From contig JBEIPA010000001.1 in the NCBI GenBank assembly GCA_040377305.1, positions 96,001 to 160,000 on the forward strand: a stretch of DNA of 64,000 bases, written 5' to 3'. Below, in pieces: positions 50,332 through 59,555 of the stretch; the stretch's first letter is position 1, and every line of letters starts with the position of its first letter. The notes under the pieces were generated by a model. The model was not told where the DNA came from. It ran no database searches and saw nothing but the letters and a program-made list of their open reading frames with translations. The translations under genes were made by a program, and so were the position numbers. Source of the stretch: Flavobacteriales bacterium. Its GTDB lineage: Bacteria > Bacteroidota > Bacteroidia > Palsa-965.

Positions 50332-50922
50332 ATGAAGGACATGGTACCCATAGCAACGACAATGGCCGCAGAGCAAAACAGGCTGCTTGAAGAAACAGTA
50401 CAGCGCGAAAGACGCCGTTTGCTCGAGTTCATACGAAAAAGAATTCCGCAGGAGGAAGATCCGGAAGACGTGCTTCAGGATGTATTCACTGAATTAACGG
50501 AAGCTTTCAGAATGGAACGGGTCATCGACCGTGTGTCGGGCTGGGTATATCGTGTTGCCAGAAACAAAATCGCAGATCTTTTCAGGAGACGGAGAACAGA
50601 GTCGTTGGAAGCACGATACGAAAAAGAATTTGGCGATGGAGAAGAAGGCTTAGGCTTAAACGACTTGTTGCCTGACCCGTCGGCAGGTCCGGAAGCTGAA
50701 TATGCACGCCGTGTTATTATGAGTGAGTTGATGCTTGCACTTGATGAATTACCGGAAGAACAGCGTTGGGTTTTCTGGGAAAATGAAATCGAAGAACGTC
50801 CTTTCCGTGAGCTCGCGGAAGAGGCTGGAGTGTCGCTCAACACATTACTTTCAAGAAAACGATATGCTGTTTTGTTTCTACGAGAACGTTTGCGCGGTCT
50901 GTATGAAGAGCTCGGCAACTAA
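50332..50922 (+). CDS. ECF-type RNA polymerase sigma factor
   Basis: EDVLQDVF and WVYRVARNKIADLFR (region 2); LPEEQR...FRELAE..GVSLNTLLSRKRYA (region 4). Confidence 0.92.
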   Translation: MKDMVPIATTMAAEQNRLLEETVQRERRRLLEFIRKRIPQEEDPEDVLQDVFTELTEAFRMERVIDRVSGWVYRVARNKIADLFRRRRTESLEARYEKEFGDGEEGLGLNDLLPDPSAGPEAEYARRVIMSELMLALDELPEEQRWVFWENEIEERPFRELAEEAGVSLNTLLSRKRYAVLFLRERLRGLYEELGN

Positions 50923-51079
50923 TAGTAAAGAGTACAGAGAAAAGAGGCGAGAGAAAAGAATGGTGCGGATGCGAAAAAGAAAACAACAGCCTCTCGCCGC
51001 TTTACTCTTCACTCTTTACCCGACCGAAAACGAGGTCGACAAACTAAAAGAAGTATAAACGAACTAAAATATACAACAC

Positions 51080-51472
51080 ATGAAATGGTTTTTGAGATGT
51101 ATAGCAGCCGTAGTGGGATTCGCTGCACTCGCATTCGCGCTCGCGTGGATAACGATGTTGCTCTGGAACTGGTTGGTTCCTGGACTGTTCGGCGGTCCTG
51201 AAATCAGGTACCTCGAAGCTGCAGGATTAATGATTCTCGGTAGACTGCTCGTGGGTGGATTCAAAAGTGGAGGTGGGCATTGCGGTCACGGTGGTAAATG
51301 GGGACATGGCGGACACGGTTACTGGAAACGTCGCTGGGAAGACAAGATGGCGAACATGACTCCGGAAGAAAAGGAGAAGTTCAAAATGGGAATGAACAAG
51401 TGCGGTGGTTGGGGACGTTGGAATGATTGTGAAACTGAGACGCCGAAGGCGGAGACGAACAATACGCAATAG
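51080..51472 (+). CDS. Small membrane protein linked to the ECF sigma factor
   Basis: MLLWNWLVPGLFG, EAAGLMILGRLL, Gly/His-rich linker and MTPEEKEKFK. Confidence 0.8.
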   Translation: MKWFLRCIAAVVGFAALAFALAWITMLLWNWLVPGLFGGPEIRYLEAAGLMILGRLLVGGFKSGGGHCGHGGKWGHGGHGYWKRRWEDKMANMTPEEKEKFKMGMNKCGGWGRWNDCETETPKAETNNTQ

Positions 51473-51567: not shown

Positions 51568-53076
51568 CTATTGCGTATTGCTCATTGGATCGCGCTTGCG
51601 CGAAAGTGCAAACATCACAAAAGCCAACGTTATCAACGATACAAAAAACGTAAGCATGCTGCTGTTTGCTTCCGATGTTTGTTCAGGTTCAAAATCCCCG
51701 AACGGAATGATGCTTCCCTGTTTCGAGCTCTGGTGTTTTTTGTCGAGATACTGATCGAACTCTTTCGGATAATCGTAATGCGTGGTGATATCGCGACCAG
51801 TGAGCCACTGATACGTGTATAATTCATTCCAACGACGCTTACCCAGTTCCACCAGATACTCTTGTCCTTTTTCGCAGGTGTAATCCGTACTGTACGGCGG
51901 GTTCGTGAGAATATATCGTCCCTGGAATCGCACCTTATTTGCAGTTTCCTGAAATAACAAATCCTGTGGAAAATGTTCGCGATCATACGTGAGGTGCAGA
52001 CGTGTGAAGTACACGAAGCCTTCGTACGTTTTAGCTTGCGTGTGATAGTCCGTGCTTTTTAGTTCAAGCCAATCTACACCCGCATCTTTCAGATCAGTTA
52101 CAACAGGTGGATCACCAACGCACGGATCACAGAATTGATTTTGCGTTGGAGAAACATCCCAACCGTATTCGAGGAAAACGGTATTCTTTCCCTCGCGACT
52201 CCATGCTTTGTTGTAGAGATCACGATAAAATTCACCGAACTCGTTGCGAACAAACAGCGGCACTTTAAAGTCGGTTGGAATAAGCGAAGTGCGATAGTTT
52301 GTTGTTTCGATGCGTCCAACTTTGGAGTACATGTACACAACAAGATCCTGTACGCCGTTTGCGTTTGCCATTCCCAGGCGAATCGGCAACATGAATTTTG
52401 GTGAGGTGTATGTAATCTGTAGTGGCTTCAATGGCACAGCTCCAGCCGCGGTGTAATTTTCGAGATTCACTTTCGCCACGAAAAACTTCATGTTCGTTTT
52501 GATGTACGGATCGAGAACTTCTTTTGCACCGACCGGCATTTTATAACCGTTGTCAATGAGCCATTCTTCTAATCCACCAGATTCAAGTGCAGAAAGAATA
52601 AGAATATCATATTCACCAACGGTGTATTTCGCTTCCACGGTTACGCCGTAGGATTTTTCCTCCATCGGTGCCGCATTTCCATCGCTGTAACCATAAGCTG
52701 CAGATCTGGTTTTCTTAGCCCCGTAGTGTGGTTTGTATTTCGGAGGAGTGTAACATGGATTCTGATCGTAGTACTCCACCAGACGTGGTGAAGAATACAA
52801 ATCAAGTTTATCGAACAACGCGCGCTCTGCAACTTTGATATCGCCTTCCTGCAATACCACCGGAACCGGAACGACCATTGCAAAATCCTTCACGTCGCCT
52901 TCAAAATCACTCGACATGGTTACGGTTTGCTTATCACCATTCTTCGCAATGATAACCTGCGATGTTTTGTTGAATAGTTTGATGTCTGCTTTTGCAACAT
53001 AAAATCCGCAGAAGCTGTAGCCGATGTTGCTTGTGAACACTATAGCTGCGAGAGTGAGGATGAGCGTCTTTTTCAT
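51568..53076 (-). CDS. DUF2330-family protein, paralog 4 (most divergent)
   Basis: Signal peptide; FCGFYVAKAD, DFAMVVPVP, PRLVEYYD.NPC, FMLPIRLG, CDPC and FQGRY; C-terminal TM followed by RKR. Confidence 0.85.
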   Translation of the reverse strand: MKKTLILTLAAIVFTSNIGYSFCGFYVAKADIKLFNKTSQVIIAKNGDKQTVTMSSDFEGDVKDFAMVVPVPVVLQEGDIKVAERALFDKLDLYSSPRLVEYYDQNPCYTPPKYKPHYGAKKTRSAAYGYSDGNAAPMEEKSYGVTVEAKYTVGEYDILILSALESGGLEEWLIDNGYKMPVGAKEVLDPYIKTNMKFFVAKVNLENYTAAGAVPLKPLQITYTSPKFMLPIRLGMANANGVQDLVVYMYSKVGRIETTNYRTSLIPTDFKVPLFVRNEFGEFYRDLYNKAWSREGKNTVFLEYGWDVSPTQNQFCDPCVGDPPVVTDLKDAGVDWLELKSTDYHTQAKTYEGFVYFTRLHLTYDREHFPQDLLFQETANKVRFQGRYILTNPPYSTDYTCEKGQEYLVELGKRRWNELYTYQWLTGRDITTHYDYPKEFDQYLDKKHQSSKQGSIIPFGDFEPEQTSEANSSMLTFFVSLITLAFVMFALSRKRDPMSNTQ

Positions 53077-53181
53077 TCGGCGGTCGGGTTTATGATATGA
53101 TGATAGAATGATCGGATGATAGGATAGGTCGAGTCAAATATTCACTACACTCTATCATTCAATCATCCCACAATCTTATCA
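53077..53181. repeat. Octamer-repeat hairpin between DUF2330 genes
   Basis: GATATGAT GATAGAAT GATCGGAT GATAGGAT, loop, then ACTCTATC ATTCAATC ATCCCACA ATCTTATC A. Confidence 0.8.
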
Positions 53182-54681
53182 CTGATTCGGTACTGTTTCT
53201 TTTAGCTTGCGCTTACGCGAAAGAGCAAACATCACTCCTGCAAATGCAAGTACTGAAGTGAAAAATGTAATCATATTGCTTTCCGATTTCGTGGCATGCT
53301 CGGGTGTGAAGTTCTCCAAATCAACCAAGGCTCCCTGTTTCTTCGGAGCGCCGCCGGTTAGAAACTGATCGTATTCTTTCGGATAATCTGCATGCGATGT
53401 GATATCGCGACCCGTGAGCCACTGATAGGTGTACAATTCATTCCAGCGACGTTTCCCGAGATCCTTGATGTAAGTCTGTCCTTCTGCACACGACAAATCT
53501 CCGCTGGCCGGATGCGTGATGATGTAGCGGCCCTGAAACTTTTCTTTGTTCGCCGTTTCCTGAAACAACAAATCCTGCGGAAAGTGCGCACGATCATATT
53601 TCAAATGCATGCGCGTGAAGAAAACATTACCTGCATACGTTCTTGCTTGTGTGTGGTAGTCCTGAGTTGCCAGTGTAAGCCAATCTACTCCTGCTTCTTT
53701 CAGATCAGTTACCATTGGAGGATCGCCCACACACGGATCACAAAACTGGGTTTGATTCGGAGAAACTTCCCACGCGTATTCGAGGAACACGGTGTTCTTT
53801 CCTTCGCGTGTCCAGGCTTTGTCGTAGAGATCCCGATAAAATTCGCCGAATTCATTCTGCACAAACAGTGGTACTTTGAAATCGGTTGGAATGAGTGAAG
53901 TGCGATAATTGGTTGTTTCGATTCTTCCGATTTTCGAATACATGTAAATCACGAGATCCTGTACACCATTTGCGTTTGCCATCCCCAGTCGGATTGGCAA
54001 CATAAATTTTGGCGATGTGTAAGTAATTTGAAGCGGATCGAGATCAACCGAACCTTTATTGGCGAACTTCTCGAGATTCACTTTACACACAAAAAACTTC
54101 ATGTTCGTTTTGATGTACGGATCCAAAACTTCTTTTGCACCAACAGGCATTTTGTAACCGTTGGCGTTGAGCCACGTTTCAAGTCCTCCCGATTCTTTCG
54201 CCGACAAAATCAAAATGTCATACGTTCCGATCTGGTACTGCGCTTCAACCGTAACTCCGAGCGTATCTGCAGCATAACCAAAGTTCATCATCGGTGCTGC
54301 ATCGAAAGAAACTTCACTCAGAAGTACTCCTTCATTGTAATACTCAGGTTCCACGTAACAGGGAGTCTGATCGTAATAAGAAACCAATCGTGGAGATGAA
54401 TAATCTTCCAGTTTTCCGAAGATGCTTTGATTCACCGTTCGGATATCTTTCTCCTCCAGCACAACCGGAACTGGAACGACCATGGCAAAGTCTTTCACCT
54501 CTCCTTCAAAATCACTCGACATCGTAACGGTTTGCTTGTCGCCATTCTTTGCTATAATTACCTGTGAAGTCTTGTTGAACAATTTCACATCAGCTTTCGC
54601 CACGTAAAATCCGCAGAAACTGTAGCCTATGTTGCTGGTGAACACTATGGCAGCTAGAGTAAGTATGAGTACTTTCTTCAT
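53179..54681 (-). CDS. DUF2330-family protein, paralog 3
   Basis: Same motifs as the other copies; 500 aa. Confidence 0.85.
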   Translation of the reverse strand: MKKVLILTLAAIVFTSNIGYSFCGFYVAKADVKLFNKTSQVIIAKNGDKQTVTMSSDFEGEVKDFAMVVPVPVVLEEKDIRTVNQSIFGKLEDYSSPRLVSYYDQTPCYVEPEYYNEGVLLSEVSFDAAPMMNFGYAADTLGVTVEAQYQIGTYDILILSAKESGGLETWLNANGYKMPVGAKEVLDPYIKTNMKFFVCKVNLEKFANKGSVDLDPLQITYTSPKFMLPIRLGMANANGVQDLVIYMYSKIGRIETTNYRTSLIPTDFKVPLFVQNEFGEFYRDLYDKAWTREGKNTVFLEYAWEVSPNQTQFCDPCVGDPPMVTDLKEAGVDWLTLATQDYHTQARTYAGNVFFTRMHLKYDRAHFPQDLLFQETANKEKFQGRYIITHPASGDLSCAEGQTYIKDLGKRRWNELYTYQWLTGRDITSHADYPKEYDQFLTGGAPKKQGALVDLENFTPEHATKSESNMITFFTSVLAFAGVMFALSRKRKLKETVPNQ

Positions 54682-54783
54682 GACGTAAGTTTATGATAGG
54701 ATGATAGAATGATCGGATGATTGGATAGGTCGGGTGATCGTACTAACTCCATCCTATCATTCAATCATCTGATAATCCCATCA
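54682..54783. repeat. Octamer-repeat hairpin between DUF2330 genes
   Basis: GATAGGAT GATAGAAT GATCGGAT GATTGGAT, loop, then ATCCTATC ATTCAATC ATCTGATA ATCCCATC A. Confidence 0.8.
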
Positions 54784-56283
54784 TGAATTCGGCACTGTTT
54801 GTTCCTTTGATTTCCGCTTACGCGATAAAGCAAACATTACTCCGGCAAACGCAAGAACAGAAGTAAAGAAACTAATCATGTTGCTTTCCGATTTCGTTGC
54901 ATGTTCCGGTATGAATTCCTCAGGTGTCAAGAATGAACCTTGTTTCTTCGCCGCACCACCCGTTAAATACCGATCGAACTCCTTCGGATAATCGTAATGC
55001 GCAGTAATATCGCGACCAGTTAGCCACTGATAGGTATAGAGTTCATTCCAACGGCGCTTTCCAAGATCCTTGATATACGTTTGCCCTTCTGCACAAGAAA
55101 GATCTCCGCTTGCCGGATAGGTGATAATGTAACGACCCTGAAACTTTTCCTTGTTCGCTGTTTCCTGGAATAACAAATCCTGCGGGAAGTGTGCGCGATC
55201 ATACGTGAGGTGCAAACGCGTGAAGAACACATTACCTGCGTATGTTCTCGCTTGCGTGTGGTAATCCTGAGTCGCCAGTGTAAGCCAATCTACTCCGGCT
55301 TCTTTCAGATCAGTTACCATCGGTGGATCACCAACGCACGGATCGCAGAACTGTGTTTGATTCGGAGAAACTTCCCATGCGTATTCGAGAAACACGGTGT
55401 TCTTTCCTTCCCGTCCCCAAGCTTTATTGTAGAGATCGCGATAGAACACACCGAACTCATCTTTCGCAAACAGAGGCACTTTGAAATCGGTTGGGATTAA
55501 CGAGGTGCGATAATTAGTCGTCTCGATGCGACCGATCTTTGAATACATGTAGATGATCAAATCCTGAACCCCATTGGCATTCGCCATTCCAAGTCGGATC
55601 GGCAACATGAATTTCGGCGACGTGTAAGTAATTTGAAGTGGATCGAGATCAACAGAACCTTTGTTCGCAAATTTTTCAAGATTCACTTTGCAAACAAAGA
55701 ACTTCATATTGGTCTTGATGTACGGATCGAGAACTTCCTTAGCACCAACCGGCATTTTGTATCCGTTGTCGTTGAGCCACGTTTCGAGTCCGCCCGATTC
55801 CTTTGCTGACAAGATGAGAATATCGTACGTGCCGATTTGGTATTGAGCTTCAATAGTTACACCTAAACTTTGAGTTGTAGTCACATTCGCGACACTCATT
55901 CTCATCATTTCCGGAGCTGCAGCAACCATATCGTAATCGTAATCGTCCCGCTCAACGTAACAAGGTGTTTGATCGTAATACGATACCAATCGTGGAGCGG
56001 AATAATCTTCCAGTTTTCCGAAGATGCTTTGATTCACTGTGCGAATATCTTTCTCTTCAAGAACTACAGGCACGGGAACAACCATCGCGAAATCTTTTAC
56101 TTCGCCTTCGAAGTCGCTCGACATGGTTACTGTTTGCTTATCGCCATTCTTCGCGATAATCACCTGAGACGTTTTGTTGAAGAGCTTTACATCCGATTTC
56201 GCAACGTAGAAACCACAGAAGCTGTAGCCCATATTGCTGGTGAATAGGATAGCGGCGAGGGTGACGATAAGTATTTTTTTCAT
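54781..56283 (-). CDS. DUF2330-family protein, paralog 2
   Basis: Same motifs as the other copies; 500 aa. Confidence 0.85.
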   Translation of the reverse strand: MKKILIVTLAAILFTSNMGYSFCGFYVAKSDVKLFNKTSQVIIAKNGDKQTVTMSSDFEGEVKDFAMVVPVPVVLEEKDIRTVNQSIFGKLEDYSAPRLVSYYDQTPCYVERDDYDYDMVAAAPEMMRMSVANVTTTQSLGVTIEAQYQIGTYDILILSAKESGGLETWLNDNGYKMPVGAKEVLDPYIKTNMKFFVCKVNLEKFANKGSVDLDPLQITYTSPKFMLPIRLGMANANGVQDLIIYMYSKIGRIETTNYRTSLIPTDFKVPLFAKDEFGVFYRDLYNKAWGREGKNTVFLEYAWEVSPNQTQFCDPCVGDPPMVTDLKEAGVDWLTLATQDYHTQARTYAGNVFFTRLHLTYDRAHFPQDLLFQETANKEKFQGRYIITYPASGDLSCAEGQTYIKDLGKRRWNELYTYQWLTGRDITAHYDYPKEFDRYLTGGAAKKQGSFLTPEEFIPEHATKSESNMISFFTSVLAFAGVMFALSRKRKSKEQTVPNS

Positions 56284-56388
56284 GACACTGTAAGTTGATG
56301 ATGGAATGATAGAATTATTGGATGATAGGATGGAACGAAGAACAACATAAACTACATCCTATCATTTAATCATCTGAGCATCCTATCA
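56284..56388. repeat. Octamer-repeat hairpin between DUF2330 genes
   Basis: GATGGAAT GATAGAAT TATTGGAT GATAGGAT, loop, then ATCCTATC ATTTAATC ATCTGAGC ATCCTATC A. Confidence 0.8.
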
Positions 56389-57894
56389 TGTTTGTGAGGT
56401 AGTTTGAGACTTTGCCTTCCGTTTTCGCGATAACGCAAACATCACTCCTGCAAATGCAAGTACAGAAGTGAAGAACGTGATCATATTGCCTTCAGACTTT
56501 GTTGCGTGTTCCGGCACGAAAGACTCGATTGACATGAACGAACCTTGTTTGGTTTTTCCACCGGTTGATTTGATGTGCTGATCATATTCCTTCGGATAGT
56601 CGTAGTGCGCAGTAATGTCGCGACCGGTAAGCCACTGATACGTGTAAAGCTCGTTCCAACGGCGCTTACCAAGCTCCTTCACATAAGTCTGTCCCTTTTC
56701 GCACGAGAAATCTCCGCTTGCCGGATGAGTAATGATGTAACGACCCTGAAATTTTTCTTTGTTCGCTGTTTCCTGGAACAACAAATCCTGCGGGAAGTGC
56801 GCGCGATCATACGTAAGATGCATACGTGTAAAGAACACATTGCCTGCGTACGTTCTCGCTTGTGTATGATAATCCTGGCTCGCAAGTTCAAGCCAATCAA
56901 CGCCAGCTTCTTTCAGGTCAGTTACCATTGGAGGATCGCCAACGCACGGATCACAAAACTGCGTTTGATTCGGAGAAACTTCCCACGCATACTCGAGGAA
57001 TACGGTATTCTTTCCTTCGCGGCCCCAAGCTTTGTTGTACAGGTCGCGGTAGAATTCGCCAAACTCATTCTGAACAAACAACGGAACTTTAAAATCGGTT
57101 GGAATCAAAGACGTGCGATAGTTTGTTGTTTCGATACGACCGATCTTCGAATACATGTAAATGATCAAATCCTGAACTCCATTCGCATTTGCCATTCCGA
57201 GTCGAATCGGCAACATGAACTTCGGTGATGCATACGTAATCTGAAGTGGATCGAGATCAACGGAACCTTTGTTTGCGAATTTTTCCAGATTCACTTTACA
57301 CACGAAGAATTTCATGTTCGTTTTGATGTACGGATCGAGCACTTCTTTAGCGCCCACCGGCATTTTGTATCCGTTGTCGTTGAGCCACATCTCTAATCCG
57401 CCCGATTCTTTCGCTGATAAAATCAGGATGTCATAAGTTCCAATTTGGTATTGCGCTTCTACAGTTACCTGGTAGTCGTCAGCCAACTCCTTGCTTACGC
57501 TTTTCATTTCCATTCTGTCGATAGACGCTCCCGCAGCCATAGGATAGTTGTAATACTCCGGTTCTACGTAACAGGGGTTCTCATCGTAATAAGAAACGAG
57601 TCGCGGGGCTGAGTAGTCATCAAGTTTGGCGAAGATGCTCGCTTGCACAGTTCGTATGTCTTTCTCTTCGAGAACTACCGGAACAGGAACGACCATTGCA
57701 AAATCCTTCACGTCGCCCTCGAAGTCGCTCGACATGGTAACGGTTTGCTTCTCGCCATTCTTCGCGATAATAACCTGCGATGATTTATTGAAAAGTTTCA
57801 CGTCTGCTTTTGCAACATAAAATCCGCAGAAGCTATAGCCCATGTTGCTGGTGAACACAATGGCTGCGAGAGTGAGTATCAGTACTTTTTTCAT
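56386..57894 (-). CDS. DUF2330-family protein, paralog 1
   Basis: Same motifs as the other copies; 502 aa. Confidence 0.85.
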   Translation of the reverse strand: MKKVLILTLAAIVFTSNMGYSFCGFYVAKADVKLFNKSSQVIIAKNGEKQTVTMSSDFEGDVKDFAMVVPVPVVLEEKDIRTVQASIFAKLDDYSAPRLVSYYDENPCYVEPEYYNYPMAAGASIDRMEMKSVSKELADDYQVTVEAQYQIGTYDILILSAKESGGLEMWLNDNGYKMPVGAKEVLDPYIKTNMKFFVCKVNLEKFANKGSVDLDPLQITYASPKFMLPIRLGMANANGVQDLIIYMYSKIGRIETTNYRTSLIPTDFKVPLFVQNEFGEFYRDLYNKAWGREGKNTVFLEYAWEVSPNQTQFCDPCVGDPPMVTDLKEAGVDWLELASQDYHTQARTYAGNVFFTRMHLTYDRAHFPQDLLFQETANKEKFQGRYIITHPASGDFSCEKGQTYVKELGKRRWNELYTYQWLTGRDITAHYDYPKEYDQHIKSTGGKTKQGSFMSIESFVPEHATKSEGNMITFFTSVLAFAGVMFALSRKRKAKSQTTSQT

Positions 57895-58000
57895 GACCCT
57901 TTAGTTTTATGATCGAATGATTCAATGATTTGATGATCGGATTGGATACGGTACAACAGAAACTCCATCCTATCAATCTATAATCATATCATGCTAATTA
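57895..58000. repeat. Octamer-repeat hairpin (more degenerate) between the RnfD-like gene and the first DUF2330 gene
   Basis: GATCGAAT GATTCAAT GATTTGAT GATCGGAT, loop, then ATCCTATC AATCTATA ATCATATC ATGCTAAT. Confidence 0.7.
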
Positions 58001-58015
58001 TTCGTGGTATTGAGT

Positions 58016-58879
58016 TTATTTAGACCAGGAGAATTTATCTCCTTTGAAAATTTTATCGAGCACAGGAACGAGTGGTGACAAGAAGAACAATGCCCACACT
58101 GGAGGCGCAGAATACACCCACCATTTCGTTGCCATGTAGTATGCCAGAATGCCAACTCCAACAGCCCATATCAATCGTGCTTTTTGTGAAGCAGGAGTCT
58201 GAACCGGATCAGTGATCATGAAGAAGGTGAAGAGCAGCAACGAACCGTTCGTTAATTGATGCGTAAAGAAATCCATCGGCCAACCGAGGTAAAGAATGTT
58301 GCGCGCAAACATTAACCCGAGGAACGTAAGCAAGAATGCAAACGCTGTATCGAGACGTTTAACGCGCAACAGCACAACCAAACCTGTAAGGCCTACAACA
58401 AACAACAACAAACCGTCACTTCCCCACTGTCCAGGAGAAATCCATGAGTCACCTGTAAGCAGGACTGTTACACAGATTCCAAAGTTTGTTGGATTGAAAA
58501 TATGTTTGCCATTATATTTTAAAAAGAACTTGCTTCCGATGGAGAGCACTGCACACAACACGAATGTCCACACACTGTTTGCCTGCATCATCAAACAGAT
58601 ACTCATTGCACTTACGAGTGCACTCTTGAGTCCTGTCCAATCTTTCGTCTTGAACTGTATCCAAAGTGCCTGCACTGCGAGACAAGAAAGAATCACGATG
58701 TTCACCCGCATGATTGGGATCGTCCAATCCAACACGAAAATCCCGTACAACAGGAAAGACAGTTGGAACAGAATCTGATAATGGCGGGCATCACTTCGAA
58801 ACCATTCGAGAACGTTAGTTACGGGCTTAATCGCCGTTTTTAGGGCGTTTTGGGCGACGGGTAGAGATTGAGTTTCCAT
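58016..58879 (-). CDS. RnfD/NqrB-family (UnbU-like) integral membrane protein, stand-alone
   Basis: DARHYQI, SKFFL...KHIFNPTNFG, WISPGQWG and FFMITDPVQTP; about 9-10 TM segments. Start METQSL at 58879; the upstream extension is translated heptamer repeat. Confidence 0.8.
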   Translation of the reverse strand: METQSLPVAQNALKTAIKPVTNVLEWFRSDARHYQILFQLSFLLYGIFVLDWTIPIMRVNIVILSCLAVQALWIQFKTKDWTGLKSALVSAMSICLMMQANSVWTFVLCAVLSIGSKFFLKYNGKHIFNPTNFGICVTVLLTGDSWISPGQWGSDGLLLFVVGLTGLVVLLRVKRLDTAFAFLLTFLGLMFARNILYLGWPMDFFTHQLTNGSLLLFTFFMITDPVQTPASQKARLIWAVGVGILAYYMATKWWVYSAPPVWALFFLSPLVPVLDKIFKGDKFSWSK

Positions 58880-59087: not shown

Positions 59088-59555
59088 TCAATACTCGTCT
59101 GCTTTCAACACTTTCTTCACCCGTGAGCCTTCTTCATTGAAGCACTGCACATAATACACGCCGACCGGAAACCCGCGGAAGTCAACCTGGAAAAGCTGAT
59201 GCGTGTTTACGAAAAATCCATAGCTGTAGTATTCTTTTCCGAAGCGATCAAACACTTTTACGTAAACCACTCCCGGAACCTTTACCCAGATGTCCATTGT
59301 AATTAAATCGACTGGGGGATTCGGTGTGTACCAGAAATCTATCGGATCGCAAATGGTGTTGGAGTTCCAGTATGTTAATCCTGCATTGTTCGAAAAGCAA
59401 TCATTCTGATAGGTGAATCCATCGCAACCACAAACCGGTTCGTAGCGCGGATCACAATAACCCCCGTATACAACTTGTGTAGAGTCGTAACACCCTTGCG
59501 CTTTCGCAAAATGACATACGACAATCAACAATACCGCAAAAGTCCAACGGATCAT
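59088..59555 (-). CDS. Kazal-like domain protein with T9SS CTD
   Basis: Signal peptide AKA-Q; CDPRYEPVCGCDGFTYQNDC; YTPNPP...VFDRFG...GVYYVQ...KKVLK. Confidence 0.8.
   Translation of the reverse strand: MIRWTFAVLLIVVCHFAKAQGCYDSTQVVYGGYCDPRYEPVCGCDGFTYQNDCFSNNAGLTYWNSNTICDPIDFWYTPNPPVDLITMDIWVKVPGVVYVKVFDRFGKEYYSYGFFVNTHQLFQVDFRGFPVGVYYVQCFNEEGSRVKKVLKADEY

Follow-up and report, generated by a model that had tools for sequence, protein, structure and literature searches.

Four tandem DUF2330 genes behind one RnfD-like membrane protein gene: putative periplasmic protease baits with a predicted p35-like fold

Why would a bacterium keep four tandem copies of a protein whose scaffold has stayed alike whilst one internal loop is largely unrelated from copy to copy? 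The question is raised by a window of 64,000 nucleotides (nt) from a Flavobacteriales bacterium (assembly GCA_040377305.1, contig JBEIPA010000001.1, positions 96,001 to 160,000), which carries an array of four genes of the Pfam family DUF2330, here called copies A to D (Table 1). The initial annotation of this array, made from the sequence alone, had proposed a diversified set of bait or recognition proteins at the periplasm or the cell surface. The explanation towards which, for us, the balance tips slightly is that the proteins are p35-like protease baits in the periplasm, docked on one membrane module, with the extra copies widening the range of proteases. Two features that bear on this had escaped the initial annotation: a gene for an RnfD-like membrane protein directly upstream, outside the interval it covered, and the predicted p35-like fold.

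All four open reading frames, of 500–502 amino acids (aa) as first described, match DUF2330 (PF10092) with expect values (E) of 1e-67 to 5e-70 and with scores of 228–237 bits against a gathering cut-off of 24.7; NCBIfam returned no match for any copy. Copies B, C and D are 85, 86 and 74 % identical to copy A, the scaffolds among the copies are 74–88 % identical, and these four are the only DUF2330 matches in the source genome (99.99 % complete, 0.53 % contaminated). Between the window copies the proportion of differing synonymous sites (pS) in the scaffold is 0.61–0.85, near saturation, and that of nonsynonymous sites (pN) is 0.015–0.15; the copies are therefore old and their scaffold is under strong purifying selection, in agreement with the initial annotation. 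Loop pN, at 0.44–0.68, is far higher, and a stalk before the C-terminal membrane helix forms a second region that differs between copies, less variable than the loop. Each copy has a hydrophobic N-terminal stretch (residues 4–22) and a C-terminal membrane helix (about residues 470–490) followed by basic residues, from which we infer periplasmic proteins anchored in the inner membrane. Of the two locations first offered, the signal peptide and the membrane helix favour the periplasm. Surface export, by a type IX secretion system (T9SS) or as a lipoprotein, was rejected, as there is no sorting domain and a Phe before the first Cys leaves no lipobox.

Table 1. The DUF2330 array and its RnfD-like neighbour, in window coordinates
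Feature	Position	Strand	Remarks
RnfD/NqrB-like membrane protein	58016..58879	-	287 aa from likely start; open frame reaches 59014; single copy
Palindromic dispersed repeat	57895..58015	.	Before copy A
Same palindromic repeat, further copies	56285-56399, 54685-54792, 53084-53190		Before copies B, C and D
DUF2330 copy A	56386..57894	-	502 aa; signal peptide, predicted p35-like domain, helical domain, stalk, C-terminal membrane helix
Loop of copy A	57469..57570	-	Residues 109-142, 34 aa, net charge -4
DUF2330 copy B	54781..56283	-	500 aa; copy used for structure prediction
Loop of copy B	55861..55959	-	Residues 109-141, 33 aa, net charge -4; predicted disordered; following strand aligns from p35 residue 92
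DUF2330 copy C	53179..54681	-	500 aa
Loop of copy C	54256..54357	-	Residues 109-142, 34 aa, net charge -6
DUF2330 copy D	51568..53076	-	502 aa; most divergent copy
Loop of copy D	52645..52752	-	Residues 109-144, 36 aa, net charge +3

The four loops, counted from the Tyr after Pro-Cys, have the sequences that the initial annotation quoted, and its description of them as similar in length, divergent, and ranging from acidic to basic stands; Tyr, Met and Ala, as it had noticed, and also Ser, are commoner in loops than in the scaffold. Loop length is confined to 32–37 aa in all 58 genes from relatives, to 25–34 aa in all 78 genes that could be parsed in the 80 metagenome loci, and to 23–36 aa in 79 of the 85 distant representatives (of 149) that could be parsed by pattern, one of the six outliers being a misparse. 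The loop is a family-wide feature, which single-copy DUF2330 genes carry too. The prospect, raised at the outset, of a neutrally evolving loop of free length is contradicted both by the 58 genes and by a pooled loop dN/dS (ratio of nonsynonymous to synonymous substitution rates) of 0.19 in orthologues (0.14 in the six closest pairs).

The manner in which the loop changes is more telling. Among sister pairs taken from the scaffold tree at a distance of no more than 0.2 (a cut that omits one between-genome pair of greater distance; one trio entered the count a single time), loop identity was 0.47–1.00 in nine orthologue pairs, each between genomes, and 0.18–0.38 in nine paralogue pairs, each within a genome (p 4e-4). 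At matched scaffold dS (0.39–0.95) the split was complete (six versus six pairs, p 0.002). The same loop type can be met at a given array position in different species, as with the basic type of copy D, which reappears in last-position copies of relatives. Differences between the loops of sister copies are thus retained while the remainder of the protein stays alike.

An AlphaFold2 model of copy B, built from 150 sequences, had a mean predicted local distance difference test score (pLDDT) of 86.9, with residues 114–139 below 50, in keeping with the disorder foreseen for the loop. When this model was compared with the PDB by Foldseek, the top five rows were all baculovirus p35 (best E 1.4e-3). 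A VIA scan of 48,161 representatives likewise returned p35 as the best match at Z 10.6, the next reaching 8.3; the p35 structural matches span Z 10.6–11.3 over nearly the whole p35 chain, and in the detailed alignment residues 24–376 of the model correspond to p35 2–299 (Z 11.2, root mean square deviation (rmsd) 5.2, 231 of 298 residues). In a library of viral structures, P35/P49 proteins occupied ranks 2, 3, 5, 6 and 7 (E 3e-5 to 3e-3). Above them stood a Clandestinovirus protein (A0A8F8PN05; E 8e-8, 16 % identity), and proteins of Tupanvirus and Terrestrivirus also matched; these uncharacterised giant-virus proteins may bridge DUF2330 and p35. At the sequence level no such link was seen: no Pfam row for the P35 family appeared at E up to 0.1 for the copies, the 150-sequence profile matched none of the PDB sequences at E ≤ 5, a PDB sequence search with one copy gave two chance rows only (E about 0.8), and the ESM Atlas held DUF2330 clusters and unnamed clusters only, at 0.89–0.90. 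By sequence, DUF2330 lies outside the p35/p49 family (MEROPS I50); its predicted model has the p35 fold.

The likeness may extend to two features on which p35 depends. In p35 the cut falls after D87, and Cys2 is required and protects the thioester, according to the available parts of PMC7863939 and PMC3252740. When residues 140–395 of the model were folded alone, their alignment to cleaved p35 began at residue 144, opposite p35 residue 92; since the p35 cut site is D87, this register predicts that the variable loop lies where p35 has its reactive-site loop, on the basis of alignment end points only. Five Cys are common to all four copies and are kept in 135, 147, 131, 132 and 140 of 150 aligned homologues, those of the CDPC motif in 131–132. 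The first, Cys23 (kept in 135), stands directly after a small-residue, signal-peptide-like site, so that the mature chain would begin Phe-Cys-Gly.

The gene directly upstream of the array encodes an RnfD-like protein (PF03116, E 3.8e-14) and is the sole PF03116 match in the source genome. It lacks about 75 residues of RnfD, those bearing the flavin mononucleotide (FMN) site, and the [ST]GAT motif was seen in none of 81 RnfD-like homologues. The protein ends after the membrane domain and matched PF03116 only, with no NqrF domain (PF00175); no FMN-binding domain was found in the 10 window proteins scanned. The RnfD-like gene is adjacent or fused to DUF2330 in 52 of 54 evaluable metagenome loci (those of the 80 with at least 1.2 kb upstream; G+C 0.41–0.72) and precedes it or is fused to it in 19 of 20 loci of relatives, the twentieth ending at a contig end; fusions make up 10 of 44 hand-picked long representatives. 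Of the 27 genus genomes, 22 have a single copy of it, the four in which DUF2330 is absent have none, and one such gene per genome stands against 1–5 DUF2330 matches.

Complex prediction suggests that the two proteins also meet. The pair scored 0.71 (0.77, 0.07 and 0.71 in separate runs), while none of three controls rose above 0.00; 116 of 157 solved pairs and 2 of 215 mismatched pairs reach the mark for this score. Predicted contacts join DUF2330 residues 254–262 and 364–379 to the conserved W146–G153 of the RnfD-like protein, the stretch that remains at the former FMN-loop site, and the variable loop is not among the confident ones. In this model DUF2330 is predicted to dock on the periplasmic face of its partner, at the place of the RnfD FMN loop.

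Expansion of the array is no peculiarity of the window. DUF2330 was found in 28 of the 61 genomes of a search among relatives (1–8 matches each) and in 23 of 27 genus genomes, 12 of which have at least two copies (one genome in which a gene is split into two matches was taken as single-copy), bearing out the paralogue expansion that had been suspected. Genome G012 enters only these two tallies and the genus tally of the RnfD-like gene. In the scaffold tree of 58 genes, expansion has happened separately several times, inside single genomes or small clades, and arrays of 2–6 copies lie on single contigs in other genomes. The highest count, eight matches, probably reflects one seven-gene array, as two of the loci (L035 and L036, genome G027) are complementary partial copies at contig ends.

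These observations can be drawn together as follows. The four exported, membrane-anchored proteins would act as interchangeable protease baits, likely alternating on the single RnfD-like protein. A protease reaching the periplasm would cut the variable loop, whereupon the p35-like domain may change shape and expose the N-terminal Phe-Cys-Gly; in that freed state the enzyme would be trapped as in p35, or a signal would be handed to the membrane protein. The latter might keep the Cys reduced through a non-covalent flavin site, or might itself be the output through its ion pathway, and extra copies would broaden the set of proteases caught. The source genome has three C25 and five C14 protease matches of its own, so targets could be self as well as foreign. 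C25 and C14 belong to the protease clan inhibited by p35, which also inhibits the bacterial gingipain K, as described in the available sections of PMC3375223.

A wider proposal, which we hold tentatively and with the odds against it, is that DUF2330 and its RnfD-like partner constitute an undescribed protease-guard system across bacteria, DUF2330 being a cellular relative of p35. It would comprise a periplasmic suicide-substrate bait on a protein derived from a respiratory subunit, the partner reducing the trap Cys or signalling cleavage, and bait genes with new loops, some mimicking envelope proteins, would be placed behind one membrane gene.

Several points weigh against a bait. No Foldseek match to the PDB reached E 0.001 or better, identity to p35 is 9 % (8–11 % across structural alignments) at an rmsd of about 5 Å, and a Legionella protein, ribophorin and aminopeptidase N-terminal domains match the same beta-sandwich at Z 7–8; fold likeness by itself shows no function. 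The match of the 140–395 fragment, which sets the loop register, is weak (Z 3.6, 159 residues, rank 3) and informs by its end points only. Phe precedes Cys23 in 123 of 150 homologues, whereas p35 begins with Cys after losing Met1, and any of the four further conserved Cys could pair with Cys23. In the complex prediction one run of three fell to 0.07, agreement between runs covers at least 4 % of contacts only, and the pLDDT of the partner is at least 75. No protease gene is a conserved neighbour, with no third gene family in more than 8 of the 80 metagenome loci, and homologues outside the host's family are mostly single-copy in the DNA searched. Because dS is saturated in the window, dN/dS between its copies cannot show positive selection. 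Finally, patchy synonymous divergence in three of nine paralogue pairs (p < 3e-4) suggests gene conversion between paralogues, which would make paralogue scaffolds look younger than loops; the retention of loop differences holds with or without it.

The loop might instead be a decoy or recognition peptide that is bound and not cut: it would mimic stretches of other envelope proteins, and once a foreign or misrouted protein was bound, the RnfD-like partner would pass on the signal. We judge this unlikely. Conservation between orthologues with divergence between paralogues fits it as well as it fits cleavage. An L-x-E-V or LESV motif, which we take to resemble the TonB box of Bacteroidota, occurs in 6 of 58 loops against a shuffle mean of 0.05, the pattern having been picked after the loops were viewed. 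One loop appears to us pilin-helix-like and several others look like Gly-rich TonB linkers. Yet most loops carry no envelope-like motif, Pfam finds no pilin family in the pilin-like homologue, and a decoy would require neither the p35-like register nor the N-terminal Cys. The loops with the L-x-E-V or LESV motif are those of G029_3, G026_1, G016_1, G021_1, G164_1 and copy C. The pilin-like homologue, P0235, has a 69-residue loop (residues 112–180), the end of which we take to resemble a type IV pilin N-terminal helix. The Gly-rich loops belong to P0225, P0229, P0255, P0257 and P0266 and presumably resemble myxobacterial TonB-type linkers; in some of the five proteins a weak TonB_C match, below cut-off, follows further on (E 0.002–0.05).

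A small redox module, comparable to two-subunit Nqr/Rnf-like complexes, would make different use of the same parts: the RnfD-like protein would shuttle electrons between membrane and DUF2330, at the CDPC motif or at other Cys, with the Met-rich loop serving as an oxidant sink or sensor. An Asp is aligned to NqrB D346 in all 81 RnfD-like homologues and another to D397 in 71 of them, positions that we take to function in riboflavin and sodium binding. The conservation of the CDPC Cys is consistent with such a role, as is the Met content (7.4 % of loop residues, 2.6 % of scaffold), and an RnfD-like subunit without a flavinylation site, docking an extracytosolic partner, is described in the available text of PMC11334425. 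The missing NqrF domain and FMN-binding partner speak against it. Residues 313–316 are not among the confident interface residues (a residue not named there being uncertain), individual loops have anywhere from 0 to 7 Met, and a generic oxidant sink would leave the divergence of sister-copy loops, with conservation between orthologues, unexplained. As a full account this seems to us rather unlikely; a redox role may coexist with the bait role.

It is improbable, in our view, that the loop is a weakly constrained linker, the copies being kept for dosage, gene conversion homogenising the scaffolds and the loops alone showing the true age of the copies. The patchy divergence noted above, with identical runs of up to 104 nt, is what such homogenisation would leave; even between orthologues the loop changes faster than the scaffold does (pN up to 0.35), stalk length is also fairly constant (mostly 26–36 aa), and the repeat before each copy could drive duplication without selection. 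The low orthologue dN/dS of the loop argues against weak constraint. In orthologues, loop and stalk are similarly conserved (identity 0.78 and 0.81, eight pairs), whereas in paralogues the loop falls to 0.28 against 0.61 for the stalk (eight pairs, p 0.008; one pair was truncated in each comparison). The recurrence of loop types at the same array position across species is likewise not expected of a linker.

Misassembly of strain variants into a chimeric array, a concern of the initial annotation, can be dismissed for practical purposes: synonymous sites between copies are near saturation, the longest identical run between them is 38 nt, junction-spanning contigs show no differences, and other genomes have multi-copy arrays on single contigs. 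Run X1 may be the source sample and hence gives no independent evidence on the assembly; in it, single contigs with no differences bridge all three gene–gene junctions and both outer junctions at depths of 15–17, and copies A and B showed no other loop allele. In the chimera's favour, the loop A contig has a depth of 7, half that of its flanks, and no single contig holds the whole array.

The palindromic repeat before each copy has arms with a 9-base period and occurs at 34 distinct loci genome-wide; it resembles repetitive extragenic palindromic elements and may have seeded the duplications. Promoter and terminator scans were at chance level. The array is faced by an extracytoplasmic function (ECF) sigma factor and a 130-aa membrane protein (window 50332–51472), an arrangement kept across the genus. 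On the other side, immediately upstream of the RnfD-like gene, 59088–59555 encodes a small exported protein that combines a Kazal-type protease-inhibitor domain with a weak match to a T9SS tail; several relatives have this gene in the same place. A composition scan of the genome gave no clear second bait-like family.

Among 300 further genomes sampled from the phylum, only 3 had a DUF2330 match. The family has 4,735 representatives at E 0.001 or better, and a scan of a genome collection with narrow patterns gave nine loci, eight of them in close relatives. Three plasmid records have DUF2330, and no relative was seen in viral contigs with the patterns used. One of the three plasmid records, from Deinococcus (L063:6076–7179), carries a broken DUF2330 gene without an RnfD-like partner, and three homologues (P0064, P0121 and P0123) have two DUF2330 domains per chain.

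No paper naming DUF2330 or PF10092, or dealing with bacterial p35 folds, was found in a literature search outside which most subscription journals lie. According to a paper of 2011 (PMC3252740), a cellular homologue of p35 had yet to be described. The main texts and short supplements of PMC8238504 and PMC11334425 contain no mention of DUF2330; their large gene-cluster tables, which lay outside the search, could bear on the novelty of the pairing. What the locus contributes is a variable loop placed, by prediction, at the bait site, together with the selective pattern of that loop, the layout of many baits on one membrane protein and the predicted docking. If the bait explanation is true, it would give the unstudied DUF2330 family a mechanism, provide p35 with a relative in cells and assign a non-respiratory function to an RnfD-derived protein. 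The array would also be a natural experiment, with four loops from acidic to basic on closely similar scaffolds and one shared partner.

The initial annotation had compared the proteins with alpha-2-macroglobulin bait regions and serpin reactive loops, in which an exposed, variable loop of low structure sits on a conserved scaffold. The bait idea itself is strengthened by a length-constrained loop, predicted to be disordered, at the predicted p35 site and by the conservation of this loop between orthologues with divergence between paralogues, but the better analogue is p35. Alpha-2-macroglobulin, serpins and the heavy chains of inter-alpha-inhibitor differ from DUF2330 in size and predicted fold; no macroglobulin or serpin family matched the copies in Pfam or NCBIfam, and neither fold is among the matches listed by Foldseek and VIA, where an unlisted family is not excluded. 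ITIH1 is a weak structural match (Z 6.0), and the source genome has two separate A2M matches. On the partner's side, the UnbU/SgcE5-type membrane proteins of enediyne clusters, short RnfD-like proteins paired with an exported protein, may offer a parallel.

Of known systems, two come close. The baculovirus p35/p49 suicide-substrate caspase inhibitors (MEROPS I50; PDB 1P35, 1I4E and 1I3S) resemble DUF2330 in predicted fold and may do so in the flexible, variable loop at the predicted reactive-site position and in the conserved Cys at the predicted mature N-terminus; among p35 relatives specificity varies with the loop, according to the available parts of PMC3252740. Unlike the viral, cytosolic p35, DUF2330 is bacterial, exported and membrane-anchored, has Phe before its Cys, four extra conserved Cys and an added helical domain, lacks a conserved Asp motif, and comes with an obligate-looking membrane partner. 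The two-subunit Nqr/Rnf-like complexes, as far as the available text of PMC8238504 and PMC11334425 describes them, share the RnfD/NqrB-like subunit without a flavinylation site and a predicted extracytosolic partner. They need an NqrF domain and an FMN-binding partner, both absent here, and their partner is an FMN-binding NqrC/RnfG homologue, whereas here it is DUF2330, with its predicted p35-like fold. Nor does the RnfD-like gene belong to a canonical RnfD/NqrB system (PF03116), which has an FMN loop with [ST]GAT and a full operon, as it lies outside any Rnf or Nqr operon. The locus stands outside the p35 family by sequence and outside the Nqr/Rnf-like systems; its mode of action is likely that of the former, its construction that of the latter.

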